Assembly: GCA_964401135.1 (NCBI GenBank)
Contig: CAYNXC010000001.1
Coordinates: 122,778 to 186,777 of the forward strand
Direction: 5' to 3'
DNA: 64,000 nucleotides
From: an uncultured Candidatus Saccharibacteria bacterium
GTDB taxonomy: Bacteria > Patescibacteriota > Minisyncoccia > Phycocordibacterales > UBA9988
This document shows, piece after piece, positions 6,212 to 50,093 of the stretch. The position numbers and the translations under genes were made by a program. The notes below the pieces were generated by a model. The model was given only the letters and a program-made list of their open reading frames with translations, was not told the origin of the DNA and searched no databases. Numbering within the stretch: position 1 is the first letter of the stretch; each line of letters begins with the position of its first letter.

Positions 6212-6287
6212 TGGTGTCGAGAGCCGGGCTCGAACCGGCGACCCTTCGCTCTTCAGGCGAATGCTCTACCAACTGAGCTATCTCGAC
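6212..6287 (-). tRNA. tRNA-Phe (GAA), CCA encoded
   Basis: The reverse complement GTCGAGATAGCTCAGTTGGTAGAGCATTCGCCTGAAGAGCGAAGGGTCGCCGGTTCGAGCCCGGCTCTCGACACCA folds as a cloverleaf. The anticodon loop CTGAAGA gives GAA. Confidence 0.9.
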
Positions 6288-6339
6288 ATAATTTCACTAT
6301 ACTCCACCCGGCTCTCTCCTTCAAAGCGTCGAGGCTGAA

Positions 6340-6612
6340 CTACCTAGGCGTGAGGGCGCCATTGATTGCATTCAATTGGCTCTTAGTACTCTCTATCATC
6401 CCCGCAGCCAGATCCCACGCATCCATGACGCTGTTTATCTGCGGTTCAAAGTAGTAGTAGAGTCCCACAGATGAGCCAATGATGATCACCCACCTGAGTA
6501 CACTGAGAGAGATCCCCCAGAGTCGTGCGCGCTGGATAGATCGTAATATGCGATTATTCTCTTGAGCCAACTCAAGGGTCTCGTGTACCTCTTCTCGCAT
6601 ATCATGATCCAT
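6340..6612 (-). CDS. Hypothetical small membrane protein
   Basis: 90-aa ORF with one TM segment (VLRWVIIIGSSVGLYYYF). Confidence 0.3.
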   Translation of the reverse strand: MDHDMREEVHETLELAQENNRILRSIQRARLWGISLSVLRWVIIIGSSVGLYYYFEPQINSVMDAWDLAAGMIESTKSQLNAINGALTPR

Positions 6613-6682
6613 TATCCAATCGTAGCAGAGGGGGTACTAAAAATCAAAAGCCCTGTCCGCCTAAGGCAGGCAGGGCTCTACC

Positions 6683-7135
6683 TCACACCACTATTCGGTG
6701 GAGCAGGAGTAGTGTGAGTTCTTCCCAATCAGGAACGCAGTAAAATCGGTTTGGCAGTCCGTCATGGACTTGGGAACCGAAAAGCAGGCAGTGTGTAACC
6801 GAATCTGGCATCGCATCAAGAACATCAAAACGGTCGTCAATCATATGAGTGAGACCAATTTCCTGTGCGATCACAACTTTTTCCCACCAATGATTACAGT
6901 AGAGTGCATCCACTCTCTTGATGCCGGTTCGCGCCCAGAAATCCCTCTGTGAGAGCCATCGGTTTATAAACCATCGAGATCCTGACAAAGTCTGTGAGAG
7001 AAGATAGATATGGTCAAAACCAGCACAGGCATGGATGCGGGTAATATCCTCTATGGCTCCAGTGACTTCCACACTCCTTGGCCCACGAATGACACCGCCG
7101 ATGTCAATGCCGAGTATCCTAGACATTATGGACAC
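6683..7135 (-). CDS. Hypothetical protein (possible HAD-like or nucleotidase-like fold)
   Basis: The N-terminal ILGIDIGGVI and the later MIDDRFDVL loosely resemble HAD motifs. The match is weak. Confidence 0.3.
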   Translation of the reverse strand: MSIMSRILGIDIGGVIRGPRSVEVTGAIEDITRIHACAGFDHIYLLSQTLSGSRWFINRWLSQRDFWARTGIKRVDALYCNHWWEKVVIAQEIGLTHMIDDRFDVLDAMPDSVTHCLLFGSQVHDGLPNRFYCVPDWEELTLLLLHRIVV

Positions 7136-7196
7136 CTCCTTTCTTATATAAAGTACTCTCCTTTTAGCCTAGCAGACAAGAAAAATAAGACAACAA

Positions 7197-7268
7197 CGCC
7201 CTCGGCAGGAATCGAACCCACATCAACCCCTTAGGACGGGGCTGTTCTATCCGTTGAACTACGAGGGC
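7197..7268 (-). tRNA. tRNA-Arg (CCU), no encoded CCA
   Basis: The reverse complement GCCCTCGTAGTTCAACGGATAGAACAGCCCCGTCCTAAGGGGTTGATGTGGGTTCGATTCCTGCCGAGGGCG folds with a 7-bp acceptor stem, a D stem GTTC/GAAC and an anticodon loop GTCCTAA. The T stem has two G-U pairs. Confidence 0.8.
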
Positions 7269-7371
7269 TACTAGGCGAGATGGTGTTCATTTTTTGAGTC
7301 GCGCCGGAGCCCTTTAGGGTAAAGCGCGAAGAAAGAACACCACGAGCCTTACCTCACTATAACAGAATTAT

Positions 7372-7611
7372 CTAAGAGATTCCGAGGAGGTTAGCGAGGG
7401 TCGGCTGATCAAAGCCAATAACAATATCTTTTTTATCAACTACAATCACCGGTACACCCATCTGCCCCGTCTTCTCAACCATCTCTTGTCGCTTCGCGAT
7501 ATCGCTCATCACATCGTACTCGGTAAAGGCAACTCCGTTCTCGGTAAAGTATTCCTTTGCCCTATGGCAAAAGTGACAGGTCGGCGTGGTATATATCTCA
7601 ACAGTGTACAT
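7372..7611 (-). CDS. Glutaredoxin-like (NrdH/Grx) thiol-disulfide protein
   Basis: A CHFC (CxxC) active site near the N-terminus, 79 aa, thioredoxin fold pattern (GVPVIVVD). Confidence 0.8.
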   Translation of the reverse strand: MYTVEIYTTPTCHFCHRAKEYFTENGVAFTEYDVMSDIAKRQEMVEKTGQMGVPVIVVDKKDIVIGFDQPTLANLLGIS

Positions 7612-7657
7612 AAAAAAGGCGCTTAACGCTTGTAATAATTCTAGTATAGCATAGCTG

Positions 7658-7972
7658 TCAAATTAACGCTGAGAGATCATCTTCAGGGCGCGCTTTGGTA
7701 CTACGCTCCTCACCACAGCGTTCGCATTGATGGACAATCACAAAGGTATCTCGCTTTTTTTCTAATCGCGTAGGCGGCATTAGCCCTCCACACAGCTCCA
7801 GCCTATCGCCAGGAAACATATCCACATGTTTACTGGTGAGACACACGGGGCAGTGGTTGGTATAGCCATCCCCTGCCACCTGTGCTCCACAGCGTTCACA
7901 AGTAAAATCCTCCTTGGTGCGTTTGAATCGCTCGCTCATGTGCGGGTAGGGAGAATCGGACTCCCGTCTCAT
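7658..7972 (-). CDS. RNHCP-domain protein. The true start is probably Met-12, at 7939.
   Basis: Contains YTNHCPVCLTSKHVD, which matches the RNHCP signature, plus flanking CxxC pairs consistent with a zinc ribbon. Confidence 0.6.
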   Translation of the reverse strand: MRRESDSPYPHMSERFKRTKEDFTCERCGAQVAGDGYTNHCPVCLTSKHVDMFPGDRLELCGGLMPPTRLEKKRDTFVIVHQCERCGEERSTKARPEDDLSALI

Positions 7973-8016
7973 GCTTGGGAAGCACGCGTTCTACCACTAA
8001 ACCATACCCGCTCTAT

Positions 8017-14747: not shown

Positions 14748-15074
14748 GTATACATCCTGTACCGATAAGCCGAATTCTGTTCTCCGCTAGAGGCGGAGCA
14801 GTAGTTATGTATCTAGGTCCGCCGTCGCCGACAGACTCAAGCGACTCTTCCCAACACAAAGTCGGGACACGGTCTTGCACTCAAGGATAAGGATTTAGCC
14901 GTTTCAGCCGGACTGAACCGGGTCGTTTCTGTTCGCACCTCGCGCGTTACCGCGGGCGGGAGTTACCCGCTACCCTTCCACTGCACGCCGTAAAGGCGGC
15001 GTCAGGGCACGTGTTCGGACTTTCCTCCCCGACCTCTATTAGAGGGCCGGAGCAACTACTTGGTACAGGACTTC
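14748..15074 (-). ncRNA. rnpB: RNase P RNA (bacterial type A)
   Basis: Carries the P4/CR-I motif GGAGGAAAGUCCGAAC (reverse complement of 15015-15030), GGGUAACUCCCGCCCGCGGUAACGCG, and the 3' ACAGAAUUCGGCUUAUCGGUAC motif. P1 pairs 5' GUCCUGUACC with 3' GGUACAGGAU. An extended -10 TGGTATAAT sits at 15079-15087. Confidence 0.85.
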
Positions 15075-41269: not shown

Positions 41270-42574
41270 TTACAATGCTGCCGCTACCCAACTAGGGAGC
41301 TCGGTTTCAGGGATACGCTCCTGCGTACCATCATCACGATTTCGTAAAGTGACGGTTCCGTCGGTAAGTGTGTCAAAGTCTACGGTGACACACCACGGGG
41401 TACCAATTTCGTCTTGCCGACGGTAGCGCTTCCCGATGTTGCCGTTGTCGTCAAAAACGACACCCGAGATGCCTCGCTTTAGGGTTTGGAAGAGTTCCCG
41501 CGCACGAGTAACCAACTCTGGCTTATTTTTAAGGAGTGGGAAGACCGCCACGCGGATAGGTGCCATGGAGGGTACCAGACGTAGAAATACTCGTTTCTCT
41601 CCGCCTAGTTCATCTTCAGCATAGGCACTGGTGAGTAAGGCAAGTGCAGTTCGGTCAAGACCAAGCGATGGCTCTATCACATTGGGGAGGAAACGCTCAC
41701 CACTCTGCTCATCTAAGTACGAGAGATCCACACCCGAGCGCTCGGTATGCCGAGAGAGATCGTAGTCACCACGGTAGGCAAGACCATAAAGTTCTTTGCG
41801 TCCAAAAGGAAAATCAAATTCAAAATCAATGGTGCGTTTGGAGTAGTGAGCTCGATCACCCTCCCCCACTTCTACCTCATGAAAGAGTGCGTCAGGAAGT
41901 CCAATGCGCTCTTTCCACTCATGCATCCGCGCTCGCCATGCTTCAAAATGCTCTTCCCACTCACTTGGACGCACAAAGTATTCCAATTCCATCTGTTCAA
42001 ACTCACGCGAACGGAAGAGGAAGTCCCGTGGAGTAATCTCATTCCTAAAAGCCTTGCCAATCTGAGCAATACCAAATGGGAGTTTGGGGTGATAAGCATC
42101 TACCGTATTTTTAAAGTTTACGAAGATTCCTTGCGCCGTTTCTGGACGGAGATATGAGACGGAGGAGCTCTCCTCTGCTGCACCCACGCGCGTCTCAAAC
42201 ATCATATTAAATTGCCGTGGCTCACTCACTGTCCCGCCACACTCGGGACACTCGATAAGTGGAGTATCTACGCGGAAGCGTCGCCTGCACTTGGCACACT
42301 CTACGAGCGGGTCAGTAAATCCTTCCACATGTCCAGACGCTTTCCATACTTCCGCATTCATAATAAGCGCGGCATCCACCATGAGTACATCATCGCGCTC
42401 GTATACAAAGGCCCTCATCCATTCCGCCCTAATACGCTCTTTTAGAAGTACCCCGAGGTGCCCCCAGTCCCAAGTGCCAGATAGGCCTCCGTAAATCTCT
42501 GAACCAGGAAAGATAAAACCGCGCCGTTTGGCGAGCGAGACGATGGCACTCATTCTGTCGATATCAGTACTCAT
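41270..42574 (-). CDS. glyQS: Glycine--tRNA ligase (alpha2 type)
   Basis: RRGFIFPGSEIYGGLSGTWDWGHLGVLLK, class II motifs. Confidence 0.9.
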   Translation of the reverse strand: MSTDIDRMSAIVSLAKRRGFIFPGSEIYGGLSGTWDWGHLGVLLKERIRAEWMRAFVYERDDVLMVDAALIMNAEVWKASGHVEGFTDPLVECAKCRRRFRVDTPLIECPECGGTVSEPRQFNMMFETRVGAAEESSSVSYLRPETAQGIFVNFKNTVDAYHPKLPFGIAQIGKAFRNEITPRDFLFRSREFEQMELEYFVRPSEWEEHFEAWRARMHEWKERIGLPDALFHEVEVGEGDRAHYSKRTIDFEFDFPFGRKELYGLAYRGDYDLSRHTERSGVDLSYLDEQSGERFLPNVIEPSLGLDRTALALLTSAYAEDELGGEKRVFLRLVPSMAPIRVAVFPLLKNKPELVTRARELFQTLKRGISGVVFDDNGNIGKRYRRQDEIGTPWCVTVDFDTLTDGTVTLRNRDDGTQERIPETELPSWVAAAL

Positions 42575-44583
42575 TGGATTACTTGGTCACTCCCACTTCG
42601 GAACACAGGATCTTTTACAATACGCGTAGTGATAGCGGGCTTCTCTGTTGTCACCGTCTTTTCTGTAAATGTATCAGTGCCCTTAAAAAGGGACTGTAAC
42701 ACAAGGGTCGGCGTCTCTCCAACTTGAGAGAGACTAGGGTTAATACCAACTTGGAATGAGGCGGTCCTCGGAGCAGTACCCCCTACTCCCACTCCCGACT
42801 TGAGGTATTGGAGATCCCAGGTAACGGTATGGGTAGATTCGTTATAGATTACCGACTCATTCACCGGTGAGGTAACCCCCTTCCATACAACATACACAGG
42901 GAGCACTGCCTCCACCGTGGCACTCGTAACATTATTTGAAGGGTTCACCAATGCCCAGGTGATGGTATATGTCGTCTCTGATCCGAGCTTTGGCGGTATG
43001 GGACCGCTATTTTTAATGGGCCCAATAGAGTAGTAACCATCAGCAGAGAAGCTGACCTGTGTTGCAAACTTCACCGAGCGAGCAATCACTGATGAAATAT
43101 TTTGTTGAGAGAATCCTTCTGCGGTGCGAGTGCCGGCAAAAGATATACTCAATTCTGCACTCGGATTGAGGGCTGCGCTGCTACGCGTTAATGCTTTCGG
43201 TTTAAAGGTAAATTGCACATTCCCATTTCCGCCTGCCTCGATACTCCCTAATCGTTCAACAACCCGCTTGTCCCAAGTAATAGTATTGTCACGAGAATTG
43301 TAGTAGCCATCATTCCCTACAGTTACTGAGCTAGGATCTACATTCCCCGAGAGTTCAAGGACAAGCACCCCCGAAGAAATGGTGGAATCAGTGCTGTTCT
43401 TCCATGAGATGACGCCTCTCACTTCTTTATCAGCAGGAGCGATTACCGACTTAGCGGTATTCCCGTTCAGTGTGGATGAGAGTGTAAGGTATGGCTCGGC
43501 AACAGAGACCGCGCCAAAGGCAGTGTTGTACACAATAGAGAGTGATCCCGCATCTTCACTGTCCTCGGTGCCTACCGTCGCACTGATTCCCTCTGACTCA
43601 TTACTATCACTTTGTGGGGTTCCCACAATGGTAACTGTCCGCTCTGCTCCGGAGGAGAGGTCGCCCAGCCTCCAGAAAGATGCTCCTTGCGATGGGTCTG
43701 GGTCAGTACTCTTTACCACAAATCCATAGGGAAAATCGACGCGTACCGCAACATTTTTCAGCGTCGTCTTTGCGTTTGAAACAATGCGCACCGTTGCGGT
43801 GATTTCTTGATCAGCATTAATCTCCTTTGGCATCTCTACGTACACATCAACCGGTGCGGCAGAGAGTGTGACAGAGTAAGATTCACTGCGAGAGAAGAGT
43901 GACATTGATTCTGGGAGGTTGTATTCCAATCCTGCAGCTATCTCCGGCTTGGAATCAGCAGAGCCGTAGAGGATTGCCTTGATAGTACGATTAACCACCT
44001 CGCCAGATTTGATTTCTCCTAAGGGAATGCGCTCACGAGTGAGTGTCTTTGCTGGATCCGCCGCATCTCGCGTACCATTTGGGTATTCAATAATGAGTGT
44101 GCTATTCAGTAACGGCTTACTGTCTTTATTGGTAATAGTCACTGTAAAGGTTGAAAGTTCCCCGCCAGCAACCGAGGTAGGACCTTGGATCACCATATCA
44201 ACATTTGTATCACTCACCCCAAGCTTAAAGTAGAGCACAGCGCCTGCGATGGCCACGCAGAGAGAGAAGAAAAGAAGCGAACCAAAGAGGAGTTTAGAGA
44301 TGAGGGACATTGGCTTTTCCACACTAGATGACATTGTGTGTAGTGTATTAGGAGTACTAGCTTCCCATTCTCTTTTTTCTTTTATATCAAGACTCCTCAG
44401 CTCACTTCTACCGCGTTCCGCACCACCCTTCCAGTCGCGGTCATAGAGCTTCTTTTTGAGCACCTCAAGGCTATCTTCGCGCGCCATCTGTTTAGTATAG
44501 CACAGCAGTTTCTGCGACCTGTGCACGAGTAAGTGTCTCTTCTGCAAGCGAAAACCCTCTCGGAGAGACGGGCTCAAACTCAC
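42571..44583 (-). CDS. Large N-terminally anchored surface protein of repeated beta-sandwich domains
   Basis: A TM helix near residue 100. Thr/Ser/Val-rich repeated segments, function unknown. Confidence 0.4.
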   Translation of the reverse strand: MSLSPSLREGFRLQKRHLLVHRSQKLLCYTKQMAREDSLEVLKKKLYDRDWKGGAERGRSELRSLDIKEKREWEASTPNTLHTMSSSVEKPMSLISKLLFGSLLFFSLCVAIAGAVLYFKLGVSDTNVDMVIQGPTSVAGGELSTFTVTITNKDSKPLLNSTLIIEYPNGTRDAADPAKTLTRERIPLGEIKSGEVVNRTIKAILYGSADSKPEIAAGLEYNLPESMSLFSRSESYSVTLSAAPVDVYVEMPKEINADQEITATVRIVSNAKTTLKNVAVRVDFPYGFVVKSTDPDPSQGASFWRLGDLSSGAERTVTIVGTPQSDSNESEGISATVGTEDSEDAGSLSIVYNTAFGAVSVAEPYLTLSSTLNGNTAKSVIAPADKEVRGVISWKNSTDSTISSGVLVLELSGNVDPSSVTVGNDGYYNSRDNTITWDKRVVERLGSIEAGGNGNVQFTFKPKALTRSSAALNPSAELSISFAGTRTAEGFSQQNISSVIARSVKFATQVSFSADGYYSIGPIKNSGPIPPKLGSETTYTITWALVNPSNNVTSATVEAVLPVYVVWKGVTSPVNESVIYNESTHTVTWDLQYLKSGVGVGGTAPRTASFQVGINPSLSQVGETPTLVLQSLFKGTDTFTEKTVTTEKPAITTRIVKDPVFRSGSDQVIQ

Positions 44584-45100
44584 GAAGGAGTGAATCAGAG
44601 AGTGTATGCGGGGTAATAAAACGCACTAGTGAGGCACACTCCTCCAAGAAACCTGCACGAGCGAGCATTCGTAAGAGCGTCAGGAGTTCAGCGTGCGGGG
44701 CAAGTGTCCGTCGAGAGACATCGTCTACACTTAAGTACTCAACCAAGGAGAAGAGGTCATGAAAGAGATCAGTGTGTGGGTCATCGGGGAGCGTGAGCTC
44801 ATAGGCAAGAGAGCAGAGTCGTGCCGTGATAGCGCGTGAATGCGCCAAACGCGTATGAGCGCGTGAAAGTGTCTCCGCGCCGGTCACTCGCCAAATCGCC
44901 TTCCCCCGCACCAGAGAGAGCCGTGTGAGTGTGTAGTCTTGCAAGTGGTAGCGAAGTTTCGACTTGAGCACGCGCACACTCTGCGCGTGTGCAGTGAGCA
45001 CCCCCAGATCCTCTGTCAAAAGATGTAGTATCTTATGTCCCTCCCCTTCTACCCGCGACTTAAGTATGAGCGCACGGGTTGTATGAATGTGGTAAGCCAT
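44492..45100 (-). CDS. recO: DNA repair protein RecO (divergent)
   Basis: An N-terminal OB-like TRALILKSRVEGEGHKILHLLTEDLGVLTAHA. The size is consistent. Confidence 0.5.
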   Translation of the reverse strand: MAYHIHTTRALILKSRVEGEGHKILHLLTEDLGVLTAHAQSVRVLKSKLRYHLQDYTLTRLSLVRGKAIWRVTGAETLSRAHTRLAHSRAITARLCSLAYELTLPDDPHTDLFHDLFSLVEYLSVDDVSRRTLAPHAELLTLLRMLARAGFLEECASLVRFITPHTLSDSLLREFEPVSPRGFSLAEETLTRAQVAETAVLY

Positions 45101-48100
45101 TATGAGCGCGAGATGGCAAACTCCTCTCCTTCAGTAAGAGTCAATACCGTAGCAGTGGCTTGCTCTAACTCCGCGCGATATTTCTCCAACAAGAGTTGCT
45201 CCTCTTTACGTGCATGGATAGTGAGAGTGATTGTCTCTTTCGGTGCGCAAGATCCACTTTTTCTGAAATCTTGTATACTCCGCACAAATTCACGGACCGT
45301 TCCCTCTTCTCGTAATACTGGAGTGATAATCGTATCTAACCACACGAGCTCCCCCATATCACGCCCTTCAAGGACTTCTTTCACATTCACCTCATCACGA
45401 ATGAGCGCGAGGTAGGCCTCCGGCACAAGCGTCTTCACCTTCATCGTAGAGAGTGGCTGGCGGATTTTTATCCCCTCGCGCTCCCTCCACTTGAGAGCCA
45501 CAGATACTAACTCACGAGTGGTCGCCATTAACTGGAGAGTGCCAGGATCTCCTCCCGAGGACACTGGCCAAAGTGCAAGGTGTACACTCTCTGGGTCACT
45601 CGTCTCACGCACTGAGAGGTAGATCTCTTCTGCCAGAAAAGGCATGAATGGCGCGATGATTTTTGAAACTTCTTTGAGTACATGCGTGAGCGTTGCAGAG
45701 ACAATGGATAGTCCCCCTTCATCTTTGAAGCGCTCGCGCGATCGGCGCAGGTACCATGTAGAAAGATCGTCGATGAAGGTGCTGATTGGCTTCGTCGCGC
45801 GATCGAGTTCGTAAGCATCCATCGCCTCTTCCACCTGCGTCTGTAACTCATCTAATCGTGCGCGTATCCACTGATCCAAGAGTACCGTGCTCTCGTGGTA
45901 GTCAGGAAGTACATGTCCTTGTGGTCTATAGAGCTCTAGGAAGGAGCGCACATTCGTGAGGCGGACGACATTTTTTCGGTATACTTCAGCAACACCTTTT
46001 TCAGAAAAATTTAGATCTTCAGCGCGGACTACAGGAGACGAGAGGAGATAGAAGCGCAACGCATCGGCTCCATAGCGCTCCATCACCTCCACAGGGTCTG
46101 GGTAGTTCTTCAGCCGCTTACTCATCTTCTGCCCATCCTCCGCAAGGATGAGACCATTCACAATAACATTGCGGTAGGGAGAGACTCCAAAGAGCCCAAC
46201 ACCGAGTACCAACATGCTATAAAACCATCCGCGCGTCTGATCCAAACCTTCTGCAATAAAGTCCGCAGGGAATCCAGTACCACGCGCAGGATCAAAAGAG
46301 CCCTGCTCCTCAAATGGGTAGTGCGCTTCAGCAAAGGGCATAGAGCCAGACTCAAACCAGCAATCAAATACTTCTGAGACGCGCGTATGTACCCCCCCAC
46401 AAGAACAGGGAAACTGGATCGCATCAATATAAGGACGATGGAGATCAATCTCTCCATCTGCATTTCGCGGTAGTCGTCGAGAGGTAGTGCGATACCACTC
46501 CCCCGTCCCTAAATGCGCCCCCTCTCCCTCGATCACCTTTCTCAACATAAAGAGCGGGAGACCGTGAGACACAACGAGGATACGCTTCCCTAAGTAGCGA
46601 GATTCCGTCTCTTGTAAGAACCCCTCCATCCGCTGAAGCACAGAGTCCCTATCTTCTCCATCGTCCGGCTTGTGCTCCCAATATGACTCCCATGTCCCCC
46701 CAGAAAAATTCCCCGGATTTAACTCTCTCAATGCTGGTACTTCAATAATTTCTTCTTGTGGGATGTCGAGTGCTACCGCAACAATACGCGTGGTCTCCTT
46801 TGTTCGATAGAAAGGAGAATGGAGTATGAGATCTGGCTTCTCTTCTTTCAGTTCCTCTGCACTTTTTTCTACTGTATGTATTCCATCAGGAGTAAGTGGG
46901 GTCACCTTCGTAGCGTCAGCAGAAACTTCTCCCGAAATATTTGCATCTATCTCTCCGTGGCGTAACAGAATGTAGGTATTGTGCAATGGGTGAGCGTCAC
47001 TTAGATCTTTCAAGGAGCCAATCACTGTCATGTCATTACAGGAGTTACAGCGCCACACCGGTAAGGGCGCGCCCCAGAAACGAGAGCGAGAAATAGCCCA
47101 ATCGCGCGCACCCTCGAGCCACTTACCAAAGCGCCCCTCCTTGATGTGTGACGGGATCCATGTGATGGCCTCGTTTGCTTTGAGCAATTCATCTTTGAAC
47201 GCGGTGACCTTCACAAACCATGATGAAGCCGCGTAGTTAAGGAGTGGCGTATCACAACGCCAGCAGTGCGGGTAGGAGTGTATAATTTTTTCTTTTGCAA
47301 AGAGAAGATTTCTTCCCACAAGATACTTGAGGATGAGGATATCTGCTGCTTGTGGATCATCCTTTGACTTTACTGGTATCCCTGCAAAATCACTCACCGC
47401 AAGGGTAAAGCGACCATCCATGCCTACATGCTGGACAAAGGGGAGCTCCTCGCGCATACCGAGCACCATATCATCCTCGCCAAAGGCAGGTGCAATGTGT
47501 ACAATACCAGTCCCATCTTCCGCGGTCACAAAGTCAGCGGCATACACAGTCCAGCCTTTCTCTCTATTTTTCAGAGTCGCATCTTCACTAAAATAGCTAA
47601 ATGGAGGAAGATACTTTTTCCCCACTAATTCAGCGCCGGATAATTCTCCGAGCACATCATACTCGCCAGTAAGAATGTGTGGTGCACGATCCTTGGAGAG
47701 GATGTAGATCTCCTCCCCTACTTTAGCTCGTATGTAAGTGAGTCCAGTTGATACCGCGAGTGCCACATTACCGGGGAGTGTCCAAGGTGTGGTCGTCCAC
47801 GCAAGTAAGAAGGTAAGATCCTCACCCACGAGGGGGAACTTTACTGTAACAGAGATATCGGTCACATCCTTGTAGCCTTGGTTCACTTCAAAGTTAGCAA
47901 GCGTTGTCTCACAGCGAGGGCAGATGTGCATTGGCTTATAACCCTCGTAGATGAGCCCCTTGTCATAGAGTGTTTTGAAAGCCCACCAGACGCTCTCGGT
48001 ATAAGAGGGATCCATGGTGCGATAGTCGTGCACCATATCAACAAAACGCCCAAAGCGCGGGATGATCTCCTTCCACTCCTCGGTGTAGCGGAGTACGCTC

Positions 48101-48426
48101 TTTTTTGCGGCATCATTAAACTTCTCAATACCATACGCTTCAATATCTTTTTTTGTTTTGAGGTCAAGCTCCTTCTCTACCACATTTTCTACCGGGAGAC
48201 CGTGACAGTCCCAGCCCCAACGGCGGCGGAGCTTCTCACCCAGCATCACGCGGTAGCGCGGAACCGCATCTTTGATGGCGCTTGCTAAGAGATGTCCGTA
48301 GTGTGGAAGGCCTGTCGCAAAAGGAGGGCCATCGTAAAAGATAAAGGGTTTGTCCCCGCGATTTTCAGTCTTGGCAAAAATATCCTTCTCCTTCCAAAAT
48401 TGTAGAATCTTTTTCTCGTAGTCCAT
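45100..48426 (-). CDS. ileS: Isoleucine--tRNA ligase (type 2) carrying an inserted histidine-phosphatase domain
   Basis: FYDGPPFATGLPHYGHLL and KMSKRLKN. Residues about 478-658 contain ILLRHGE...LVVSHG, a PGAM-like insert. Confidence 0.9.
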   Translation of the reverse strand: MDYEKKILQFWKEKDIFAKTENRGDKPFIFYDGPPFATGLPHYGHLLASAIKDAVPRYRVMLGEKLRRRWGWDCHGLPVENVVEKELDLKTKKDIEAYGIEKFNDAAKKSVLRYTEEWKEIIPRFGRFVDMVHDYRTMDPSYTESVWWAFKTLYDKGLIYEGYKPMHICPRCETTLANFEVNQGYKDVTDISVTVKFPLVGEDLTFLLAWTTTPWTLPGNVALAVSTGLTYIRAKVGEEIYILSKDRAPHILTGEYDVLGELSGAELVGKKYLPPFSYFSEDATLKNREKGWTVYAADFVTAEDGTGIVHIAPAFGEDDMVLGMREELPFVQHVGMDGRFTLAVSDFAGIPVKSKDDPQAADILILKYLVGRNLLFAKEKIIHSYPHCWRCDTPLLNYAASSWFVKVTAFKDELLKANEAITWIPSHIKEGRFGKWLEGARDWAISRSRFWGAPLPVWRCNSCNDMTVIGSLKDLSDAHPLHNTYILLRHGEIDANISGEVSADATKVTPLTPDGIHTVEKSAEELKEEKPDLILHSPFYRTKETTRIVAVALDIPQEEIIEVPALRELNPGNFSGGTWESYWEHKPDDGEDRDSVLQRMEGFLQETESRYLGKRILVVSHGLPLFMLRKVIEGEGAHLGTGEWYRTTSRRLPRNADGEIDLHRPYIDAIQFPCSCGGVHTRVSEVFDCWFESGSMPFAEAHYPFEEQGSFDPARGTGFPADFIAEGLDQTRGWFYSMLVLGVGLFGVSPYRNVIVNGLILAEDGQKMSKRLKNYPDPVEVMERYGADALRFYLLSSPVVRAEDLNFSEKGVAEVYRKNVVRLTNVRSFLELYRPQGHVLPDYHESTVLLDQWIRARLDELQTQVEEAMDAYELDRATKPISTFIDDLSTWYLRRSRERFKDEGGLSIVSATLTHVLKEVSKIIAPFMPFLAEEIYLSVRETSDPESVHLALWPVSSGGDPGTLQLMATTRELVSVALKWREREGIKIRQPLSTMKVKTLVPEAYLALIRDEVNVKEVLEGRDMGELVWLDTIITPVLREEGTVREFVRSIQDFRKSGSCAPKETITLTIHARKEEQLLLEKYRAELEQATATVLTLTEGEEFAISRS

Positions 48427-48431
48427 ACCTG

Positions 48432-50093
48432 TTACATCCTATCTGGAGCAGACATACCGAGCAAGGTAAGCGTGCGTGCGAGTACTCTACGAGTAGCTGA
48501 GGTGAGTGCTACACGGTAGGCCTCCGCCTCTGAGCCAACAATGCGATTACCTGCGTAGTATGCGTTAAATGCTCCCGCGAGCTCATTTGCGTACGAGACC
48601 AAACGTTGCGGAGCCAGTTCCGTGACGGCGCGTCCTGCCTCCTCGGGGAAGTGAAAAATAAGCCGCTCAAGAACACCCGGCACTTCTGGGCTGTGTACGC
48701 TTGCCGCCACATTGGATTGTGAGAGTACATTGGCCGCACGTGCATGTGTGTACTGGAGGTAAGGACCAGAGTCGCCGGTAAATGAAATAGATTTATCACT
48801 ATCAAAAACAATGTCCCTCCCTATCCCCTGCTTGAGTATTGAGTATTTGAGTGCGGCAACAGAAATAAGATCGAGTGATCCACTTGCCTCCTTTCTCTCT
48901 CCTGCAGAAGCAATACGGATACGAATCTTTTCCCGTACCTCATCTATAAGCCGCTCGGCGGTGAGCACATATCCGGTACGGGAAGACATTTTACCAGACG
49001 GGAGGCGCAGCATCCCGTGCGGGATATGTTTTTGTCTTGCAGCAAGCTCGGGGAAGATTTCTCCCATTGCGACAATGAGCACTTTAAAGTACTCACTAAC
49101 CTCATTCCCCGTCACTACGACCGAGAGATCGTGGGGGTAGCGCTCGTACTTGATCTGCGCGAGACCGAGCTCCTTTGCCTCGTAGGTGGGGAGGCCTTCT
49201 GTATTGAGAAAGACGCGTGTGTGGAACCCCTTTTTTTCACCACGGTAAATGATTGCGCCATCGCTCTCTTCAAATACATCACCCGTATGCTCGCGCACAA
49301 TTTTCTTGCCAAATTCACCCGTCTCGCTCTCGAAGAAATAGTAATCAAAGTGAGTGCCAAGCATTGCGTAGATCGTCTCAAAATATTCTAGAGAGATCCT
49401 TCTCCCCATATCGTAGAGAGTATTTATTTCTGAGTCACTGCGCTCGTATACTTTTTTATTTATCTCCTGAATCTCTCTCTTTGCTTGTTCATCTGACTCG
49501 TAAGATATCGCCCCTAATGTATACGCCTCACCGAGCACAGCGATCGAGCTGGCTCCAACTCCTTTTTTTTGCATACCCCACAATGCCTTTGCCACATGAA
49601 GGCCGATATCGCCCTGATAGTTGGACCGCTTCACCTCTGCCCCACCCCACTCGATAAGTCGTGAGAGAGATTCGCCAATGGTATTACTCATTAAGTGGCC
49701 AATGTGGAAGAGTTTGAAAGGGTTGGGATCAGTGTACTCAATAATCACTTTTTTATCTGCGTAGGCAAGGCTCTTACCGTAGTCTGGATTAGTAGACGCC
49801 TCGGTAATGGCGCGATGGAAAACTTCGTAGCTTAGGAAAAAGTTTATGAATCCTGCCCCAGCAACTTCTATCCGCTCTATCCCCTGTATTTTTGTTTTAG
49901 AGAGTTCAGCAGTAATTCCCTCCGCATGCTCTCGTACTGATGCACCCGTCTTTTTGGCAAGCAAGAAAGCTACATTACACGCATAATCTCCCCTTCCCTC
50001 TCCTCCCCACTCAACAGTAAAGGGGGACTCTGGAAGTCCGAGAGCTCTACAGACACTCTGTACCGCGTCAGCAATCTCATTCTGCACTATCAC
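48432..50093 (-). CDS. argS: Arginine--tRNA ligase
   Basis: YTDPNPFKLFHIGHLMSNTIGESL, with Arg_tRNA_synt_N and DALR domains. Confidence 0.9.
   Translation of the reverse strand: MIVQNEIADAVQSVCRALGLPESPFTVEWGGEGRGDYACNVAFLLAKKTGASVREHAEGITAELSKTKIQGIERIEVAGAGFINFFLSYEVFHRAITEASTNPDYGKSLAYADKKVIIEYTDPNPFKLFHIGHLMSNTIGESLSRLIEWGGAEVKRSNYQGDIGLHVAKALWGMQKKGVGASSIAVLGEAYTLGAISYESDEQAKREIQEINKKVYERSDSEINTLYDMGRRISLEYFETIYAMLGTHFDYYFFESETGEFGKKIVREHTGDVFEESDGAIIYRGEKKGFHTRVFLNTEGLPTYEAKELGLAQIKYERYPHDLSVVVTGNEVSEYFKVLIVAMGEIFPELAARQKHIPHGMLRLPSGKMSSRTGYVLTAERLIDEVREKIRIRIASAGERKEASGSLDLISVAALKYSILKQGIGRDIVFDSDKSISFTGDSGPYLQYTHARAANVLSQSNVAASVHSPEVPGVLERLIFHFPEEAGRAVTELAPQRLVSYANELAGAFNAYYAGNRIVGSEAEAYRVALTSATRRVLARTLTLLGMSAPDRM

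Follow-up and report, generated by a model that had tools for sequence, protein, structure and literature searches.

A histidine phosphatase domain nested in the type-2 isoleucyl-tRNA synthetase of a candidate phyla radiation bacterium

Why should an isoleucyl-tRNA synthetase (IleRS) carry a phosphatase in the middle of its polypeptide chain, and what ties the two together? The question is raised by the ileS gene in a 64,000-nucleotide (nt) stretch of contig CAYNXC010000001.1 (GenBank assembly GCA_964401135.1), which is referred to as the window in the following. The initial annotation of this DNA, made from the sequence alone, had described a histidine phosphatase domain resembling that of phosphoglycerate mutase, inserted in-frame in an otherwise contiguous IleRS, and had assigned the organism to the candidate phyla radiation (CPR); both descriptions hold. 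The explanation that we consider best, with modest confidence, is that the domain is an autonomous phosphomonoesterase, which forms a phosphohistidine intermediate on His490 and is tied to IleRS, as we infer, through its necessary expression and localisation together with a protein that is essential and made constitutively, and not by a shared active site. The ileS product would then be one protein with two enzymes, a fully functional type-2 IleRS hosting a self-contained branch-1 histidine phosphatase at the tip of the zinc knuckle in connective peptide 3 (CP3).

A phosphatase domain inside CP3

The host protein is an IleRS of the type-2, or eukaryote/archaeal-like, class. In an NCBIfam search it scored 842.6 bits against the IleRS equivalog TIGR00392 (cut-off 621.4), and the Pfam family tRNA-synt_1 (PF00133) covers residues 6–478 and is picked up again past residue ~656. 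The signature motifs HYGH (HIGH-type, residues 42–45) and KMSKR (767–771) are both present. The type-2 IleRS of Priestia megaterium (8c8v) was matched with an E-value of 4.9e-220, against 3.1e-88 for the type-1 enzyme 1ffy; the C-terminus consists of DUF5915 (PF19302) at residues 1028–1094 instead of a C-terminal zinc-binding domain, and Foldseek ranked IleRS2 and yeast IleRS at the top. The IleRS of this organism is only ~55% identical to the IleRS of named candidate phyla. The mupirocin-resistance enzymes MupA and MupB were considered and rejected, with scores of 707 and 725.6 bits against the more than 1900 needed; the window protein is related to them as an IleRS2 and is not one of these plasmid enzymes.

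In the alignment with 8c8v, residues 3–479 of the query correspond to residues 13–477 of the chain and residues 656–1027 to residues 482–856, with ~176 residues in place of ~4 in the reference. The insert itself comprises the 177 residues 481–657 and lies at nt 46456–46986, within the interval 46450–47000 given by the initial annotation. His_Phos_1 (PF00300) was matched at residues 486–634 (E 6.9e-23, 81.8 bits against a cut-off of 21.7), which places the domain in branch 1 of the histidine phosphatase superfamily. Both flanks of the insert belong to CP3, the subdomain that joins CP2 to the second half of the Rossmann fold, as described with the Candida albicans IleRS structure (PMC7191050). 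CP3 bears a zinc-binding motif in Thermus thermophilus IleRS, and its topology varies between IleRS structures (PMC7191050). The site of the phosphatase, between the two CP3 halves, is thus the tip of a surface element known to vary. The zinc-knuckle cysteines are kept in nearly all of the 121 aligned sequences (C460, C463 and C674 in 119 each, C676 in 118). Several insert-bearing IleRS (P0174, P0194, P0207 and P0225) lack the N-terminal CxxC of CP3 and have, for example, VWRHSKTKE or IWQNAEGSK instead, and the zinc knuckle is thus not needed for hosting the phosphatase. An insert-less relative, P0107, joins the two halves at exactly the same junction (KELGEKS/ETDLHRP). A Foldseek structure comparison found nothing comparable at this position, and no catalytic domain in CP3, in any solved IleRS.

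An AlphaFold2 model of the whole protein, built with 120 homologues, was confident throughout (mean predicted local distance difference test score (pLDDT) 92.5, predicted template modelling score (pTM) 0.84), with values of 83–93 for the linker blocks, and predicts the insert to be a compact alpha/beta domain. Modelled by itself, the insert reached a pLDDT of 94.7 and a pTM of 0.91.

An abrupt break in the homology to IleRS, as seen here, might also be produced by an artefact or a mobile element, that is, by an assembly chimera, an intein or a recent mobile insertion. Beyond the break itself nothing points to this origin, and we give it next to no weight. An identical protein is encoded in a separate assembly (P0045), and relatives at 87, 78 and 69% identity are found on contigs reaching 672 kb. 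PF00133 and PF00300 occur together in 119 of the 120 best full-length matches, down to ~52% identity, and the named carriers among these matches are Patescibacteria/Paceibacterota, including Lloyd-, Vogel- and Yonathbacteria. When one genome per species was scanned with a pattern consisting of the insert alignment extended through the DLHRPYID junction, at least 600 matches were obtained, and at least 361 species-level Patescibacteria genomes were confirmed to have both the insert and the junction; the counts from these scans are lower bounds. All 80 confirmed genomes among the matches listed are metagenome-assembled genomes (MAGs) of Patescibacteria/Parcubacteria. Among 1.84 billion cluster representatives searched exhaustively with a profile, 497 were matched at E ≤ 1e-30. 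Conservation of the insert in hundreds of independent assemblies rules out a chimera, and the base composition is unremarkable. An intein can be rejected as well: in the window protein no Hint/intein family was matched at E ≤ 0.1 in Pfam, nor was any transposase, and the junctions AHP/LHN and NAD/GEI, with no Cys, Ser or Thr as first residue and no His-Asn-Cys/Ser/Thr at the end, are not intein-like. The junction residues read P/L and D/G, and the initial annotation was right to reject an intein and to propose a stable domain fusion. In a large part of the Patescibacteria, an IleRS with a nested phosphatase is the rule and not a peculiarity of a single genome.

Many of the insert-bearing IleRS are named 'class I tRNA ligase family protein' or 'hypothetical protein' at NCBI and isoleucyl-tRNA synthetase at JGI, so that an essential gene is systematically under-annotated in the MAGs of CPR bacteria. 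Two further sequences, P0041 and P0044, are IleRS fragments with Trp at the position of a conserved Gly (for example, DQTRWRF for DQTRGWF) and look like products of UGA-recoding lineages read with the wrong table. P0044 has a second phosphatase-like segment (RH...SH...R..T..A) past KMSKS, and the association with IleRS may reach Gracilibacteria-like CPR.

Predicted chemistry and substrate range

The domain has the alpha/beta fold of its superfamily and all of the expected catalytic residues, namely the RHG motif with R489 and H490, the second arginine R541, the acidic proton donor E568 and the second histidine H621. The RHGE and SHG motifs on which the initial annotation was based are present at residues 489–492 and 620–622, and the similarity goes far beyond chance. 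When the window protein was aligned with 120 matches, none of the 120 sequences with an insert differed at R489, H490, R541, E568 or H621, or at the pocket residue N496, even though identity to the insert of the window is only ~36%. Among 149 cluster representatives analysed for catalytic residues and copy number, the position of E568 is Glu and occasionally Asp. Members of this superfamily are known to hydrolyse their substrates by way of a phosphohistidine. By analogy, the phosphomonoester would be held by R489, R541, H621 and N496; H490 would attack it to give the phosphohistidine intermediate with E568 protonating the leaving group, and water would then free the phosphate. Homology and the intact residues thus point to phosphatase activity. 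Comparison of the window with its 87%-identical relative gave a ratio of nonsynonymous to synonymous substitution rates (dN/dS) of 0.15 for the insert, and this value and the invariant catalytic residues indicate purifying selection on the domain as an enzyme. The synonymous rate (dS) along ileS (window 45103–48426 against L083, 87% identical) is uneven, with 0.39 in the N-terminal part, 0.68 in the insert and saturation (>2.5) in the C-terminal part, which suggests a recombination mosaic between strains.

Several named subfamilies of histidine phosphatases were tried and rejected. For phosphoglycerate mutase (dPGM), the domain scored 45.2 bits with NF038349 (cut-off 225) and 32.1 with the GpmB model NF002901 (cut-off 261), and in place of the dPGM signature HGN(S/T)LR after the second His the window has SHGLPL; the residue that follows H-G varies across the family. 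The scores were likewise too low for the alpha-ribazole phosphatase CobC (TIGR03162, 43 against 162.9), the phosphoserine phosphatase PspA (NF045917, 31.7 against 350) and the phosphohistidine phosphatase SixA (TIGR00249, 27.9 against 74.5). Judged by its scores, which lie below the curated cut-off of every named subfamily, the domain is a generic PhoE-like member. Its nearest structural relatives are enzymes that act on small metabolites, and SixA (17.2), the phosphatase domain of TFIIIC tau55 (15.5) and PGAM5 (14.9) come further down the ranking. A sequence profile made from 41 diverse inserts recovered the same relatives in the PDB.

These relatives also bear on the substrate. The nested domains are acidic, with an isoelectric point (pI) of 5.1 and a net charge of -10 in the window and a median pI of 5.6 in the family, and the cap between the catalytic Glu and the GGE motif is 31 residues long in most members and 21 in the clade of the window. 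The acidity and the retained cap favour a small-molecule substrate and, taken with the metabolite-acting relatives, lean towards a small phosphomonoester and away from self-standing RNA binding; a phosphate of a nucleotide, sugar or amino acid would be of the appropriate type. Ap4A, which the initial annotation had listed as a possible substrate next to nucleotide 2'/3'-phosphates and tRNA ends, would for chemical reasons be an improbable substrate of a phosphomonoesterase from this superfamily.

The presence of SixA and PGAM5 among the relatives raises another possibility, in which the domain is a protein phosphatase like SixA, PGAM5 or Sts that keeps IleRS or a partner dephosphorylated, for instance against a HipA-like kinase hitting the ATP-binding loops of aminoacyl-tRNA synthetases (aaRS), or regulates IleRS in some other way. 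We consider this improbable. Most members keep the full cap like small-molecule enzymes, the best matches are metabolite phosphatases, the SixA model of NCBIfam falls well short of its cut-off, and the neighbourhoods read showed no kinase that might be its partner.

Losses, extra copies and free genes beside ileS

The relation of the phosphatase to its host can be read from lineages in which the two are arranged differently. In a neighbour-joining tree of masked IleRS bodies, the insert-less P0107 (946 residues) groups among insert-bearing proteins, and no phosphatase gene is present at its locus. This looks like a clean secondary loss, and the domain is dispensable for IleRS.

Other lineages have gained copies. 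Two to four phosphatase domains per IleRS are present in 13 of the 149 representatives, and they occupy four insertion sites (in the numbering of the window protein), at 480/658 and 677/683 in CP3, at ~703–710 in the loop past DCWFESG and at ~837–845 in the loop before the anticodon-binding domain. The catalytic Arg-His...Arg...Glu...His set is retained in every complete copy among the 149, again with an occasional Asp at the acidic position, whereas N496 is replaced by Ala in one copy and by Gln in a second one. P0165 (1161 residues) has four copies, each of which keeps those catalytic residues that its sequence covers, and the third is the one with Ala. P0165, P0297 and P0178 are IleRS fragments with three or four histidine phosphatase domains, either in tandem or dispersed. 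By NCBIfam, the seven long hosts tested are all IleRS, and none is a ValRS, LeuRS or MetRS. A further protein, P0256 (1066 residues, 'isoleucyl-tRNA synthetase' at JGI), combines a match to an IS200-like Y1 transposase at residues 340–461 with His_Phos_1 at 680–854 and a GNAT domain at 935–1063, and the IleRS of CPR bacteria appears to be a hotspot of in-frame domain accretion.

Such tolerance would also fit a neutral passenger domain or structural pseudo-enzyme, derived from a neighbouring gene that was nested by accident in a permissive loop and kept without catalysis. The variable topology of CP3, the acceptance of other inserts in relatives (GNAT and the IS200-like segment of P0256) and the dispensability in P0107 are in line with this idea, which is nevertheless very improbable given six catalytic and pocket residues that stay invariant among such divergent inserts, the low dN/dS and extra copies that keep their catalytic residues. 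The reading as a dead passenger, like that as an artefact, is essentially excluded.

The same domain is also found as a separate gene. About 28 representatives are complete free proteins of ~190 residues that end just past the last strand of the fold. In five of seven contigs the free gene lies directly 5' of an insert-less ileS (931–984 codons) with gaps of 1–9 nt, or 55 nt for P0237, and in the remaining two it is located away from ileS. Its neighbourhood repeats the argS-...-ileS-recO order of the window. When eight free members were used as seeds for a metagenome scan, 80 loci were obtained, one of which is the nested form. Among the 74 free-standing loci with enough downstream DNA, ileS follows immediately in 57 and at 0.6–2.4 kb on the same strand in 6 (within 2.4 kb in 63 of 74), and no ileS is found downstream in 11, within the DNA available. 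The adjacency fraction may be inflated because the scan was seeded from a subfamily already known beside ileS. The free homologue P0304 (L092, 4001–4597) is situated away from ileS among genes for MazG-like, SLFN-like helicase and DUF3800 proteins, in a neighbourhood that looks like a defence island or mobile element. Proteins of ~725–765 residues that start ~75 residues before the domain were considered as a possible split IleRS; the one checked, P0168, begins 32 nt from a contig end, and these are probably truncated gene calls.

As the phosphatase is nested in some lineages and encoded by a separate adjacent gene in others, the two form a split/fused ('Rosetta stone') pair. Because relatives exist that are cleanly without the domain or have it as a separate gene of ~190 codons upstream of ileS, it can be regarded as an add-on outside the aminoacylation machinery. 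Most probably, a local rearrangement of a neighbouring gene would have given rise to the nested form, or the nested form to the split one. Adjacency alone neither proves nor excludes a functional linkage, since gene order is generally conserved in CPR bacteria and argS, recO and a class II aaRS gene are neighbours too. The repeated attachment to IleRS and only IleRS, by comparison, argues that proximity to IleRS matters.

In the main alternative, which we regard as possible, though doubtful, the phosphatase would be mechanistically coupled to IleRS and act on a substrate that IleRS binds or makes. It might, for example, prepare tRNA(Ile) ends that are damaged or toxin-modified for charging by clearing them of a 2'/3'-terminal phosphate or pyrophosphate, or destroy a phosphorylated adenosine nucleotide acting as an inhibitor of the synthetic site, in a 'repair-and-charge' or self-protecting IleRS. 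Some of the evidence weighs against our preferred explanation here. Genetically, the domain is linked to IleRS in particular in three independent ways, namely by the nesting at CP3 in hundreds of species, the renewed insertion at three other loops to give four sites and up to four copies with catalytic residues kept, and the free gene that abuts ileS; the multiple insertions and the tight adjacency, neither of which the initial annotation had foreseen, agree better with a direct coupling to IleRS or to tRNA than with co-expression alone. All long hosts tested are IleRS, the cap that is 10 residues shorter in the clade of the window would open the active site to larger substrates, and the confident linkers and pTM of the model suggest a fixed orientation on the IleRS body. 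On the other hand, the domain is acidic with no evident RNA-binding surface, its closest structural relatives act on small metabolites, it has been cleanly lost in P0107, and some free homologues lie away from ileS. We also know of no precedent for a histidine phosphatase that acts on tRNA ends, which counts against coupling.

An autonomous phosphomonoesterase that is kept with IleRS through co-expression and co-localisation hence remains our preferred explanation. Only tentatively do we propose that the phosphatase is a dedicated catalytic accessory of IleRS, repeatedly attached by selection, which would serve in healing or unblocking the 3' end of tRNA(Ile), in removing a phosphorylated inhibitor or in dephosphorylating the synthetase.

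Gene neighbourhood and comparison with known systems

The coordinates of ileS, its parts and other features of the window are listed in Table 1. The order argS-(phosphatase)-ileS-recO is a conserved neighbourhood, and lineages with the split form place the free phosphatase gene there. The counterparts of the 670-codon open reading frame (ORF) beyond recO have no Pfam match in L083 and L084 and only a faint CLIPPER match in L081; the hydrophobic start and the Ser/Thr-rich composition of its product may indicate a surface protein. The RNase P RNA, which is 322 nt long compared with 367 positions in the model, scored 103.4 bits against a gathering threshold of 100 bits in Rfam, suggesting a reduced RNA.

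Table 1. Positions of ileS, of its domains and predicted catalytic residues, and of other features in the window
Feature	Position (nt)	Strand	Remarks
ileS, type-2 (eukaryote/archaeal-like) IleRS with nested phosphatase domain	45100..48426	-	1108 aa + stop
Anticodon-binding domain (PF08264, aa 851-994) and IleRS2-type C-terminal domain (DUF5915, aa 1028-1094)	45103..45876	-	Pfam
Second half of Rossmann fold and stem-contact region	45877..46365	-	DCWFESG 688-694, KMSKR 767-771
C-terminal half of CP3, aa 658-687	46366..46455	-	Second zinc-knuckle pair, CSC 674-676
Nested histidine phosphatase (His_Phos_1) domain, aa 481-657	46456..46986	-	
H621, second catalytic His	46564..46566	-	VSHGLP block; SHG 620-622
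E568, predicted general acid	46723..46725	-	LRELNPG block
R541, second catalytic Arg	46804..46806	-	SPFYRTKETT block
N496, conserved phosphate-pocket Asn	46939..46941	-	RHGxxxxN
RHGE motif 489-492	46951..46962	-	R489 and H490, predicted phospho-accepting nucleophile
N-terminal half of CP3, aa 457-480	46987..47058	-	First zinc-knuckle pair, CNSC 460-463
argS, directly upstream of ileS	48432..50093	-	ORF; synteny with L081, L083, L085, L086, L091
recO-like gene, 1-base overlap with ileS stop codon	44492..45100	-	RecO_N annotated in homologues of L083, L081
670-aa ORF 3' of recO-like gene	42571-44583	-	Position conserved in L083, L084, L081 (610-638 aa)
Bacterial RNase P RNA, class A	14750-15071	-	Rfam
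Three tRNA genes, Phe-GAA, Arg-CCT and Gly-CCC	6212-8011	-	

Extra domains in synthetases are a recognised route to new biology, and the fused, multi-copy and split forms described above provide a natural experiment on how two activities relate. The vague protein names and the sub-threshold matches to phosphoglycerate mutase, CobC and PspA could distort estimates of completeness and metabolic reconstructions of CPR genomes. If the phosphatase acts on tRNA or on IleRS, it would represent a new class of synthetase-linked quality control or defence, and if it is a dedicated accessory, the IleRS of CPR bacteria would be a bifunctional 'repair-and-charge' or self-defending enzyme and the domain an aaRS accessory of a new kind. 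The protein sequences can already be found in public databases, where their Pfam matches are precomputed. A histidine phosphatase in or next to IleRS was not found described in the full-text literature searched, which did not extend to subscription-only sources, and a bacterial IleRS that hosts a second and apparently active enzyme in its CP3 loop is new relative to this literature.

Several known systems share parts of this architecture. The type-2 IleRS structures 8c8u and 8c8v, and 1ile with its zinc-bearing CP3, represent the same overall enzyme (TM-score 0.71–0.75, normalised by query length), with HIGH-type and KMSKS motifs, an editing domain, a DUF5915-type C-terminus and a Cys4 zinc knuckle in CP3, but the references have a connection of 4 residues where the window protein has a phosphatase domain of 177. 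The small branch-1 histidine phosphatases of the PhoE/PspA/CobC type (1h2e, 4ij5, 6e4b) are free-standing enzymes with known substrates, whereas the domain described here is nested in IleRS or encoded beside it. An IleRS with another extra enzymatic domain is represented by NF040702 ('isoleucine--tRNA ligase, N-acetyltransferase domain-containing'), in which this domain is a GNAT; the window protein reaches 282.6 bits against a cut-off of 1999 with this model, through the N-terminal IleRS part only, and has no Pfam match to an acetyltransferase. A PhoE/CobC-like phosphatase is also covalently joined to a nucleic-acid enzyme in the Rv2228c-type RNase H/CobC-like acid phosphatase (NF005567). Of the NCBIfam models that contain a phosphatase, this one gives the insert its highest score (46.3 bits, far short of the cut-off of 326), but the fusion with RNase H is end to end and not nested. 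The histidine phosphatase domain of yeast TFIIIC tau55 (2yn0) is a distant relative in a eukaryotic transcription factor, where it is N-terminal and likewise not nested. Lastly, the CP1 editing domain sets a precedent for a second catalytic domain inside the Rossmann fold of IleRS, ValRS and LeuRS. The CP1 domain is universal and acts on the enzyme's own product, whereas the phosphatase is located in CP3, restricted to a clade and dispensable.

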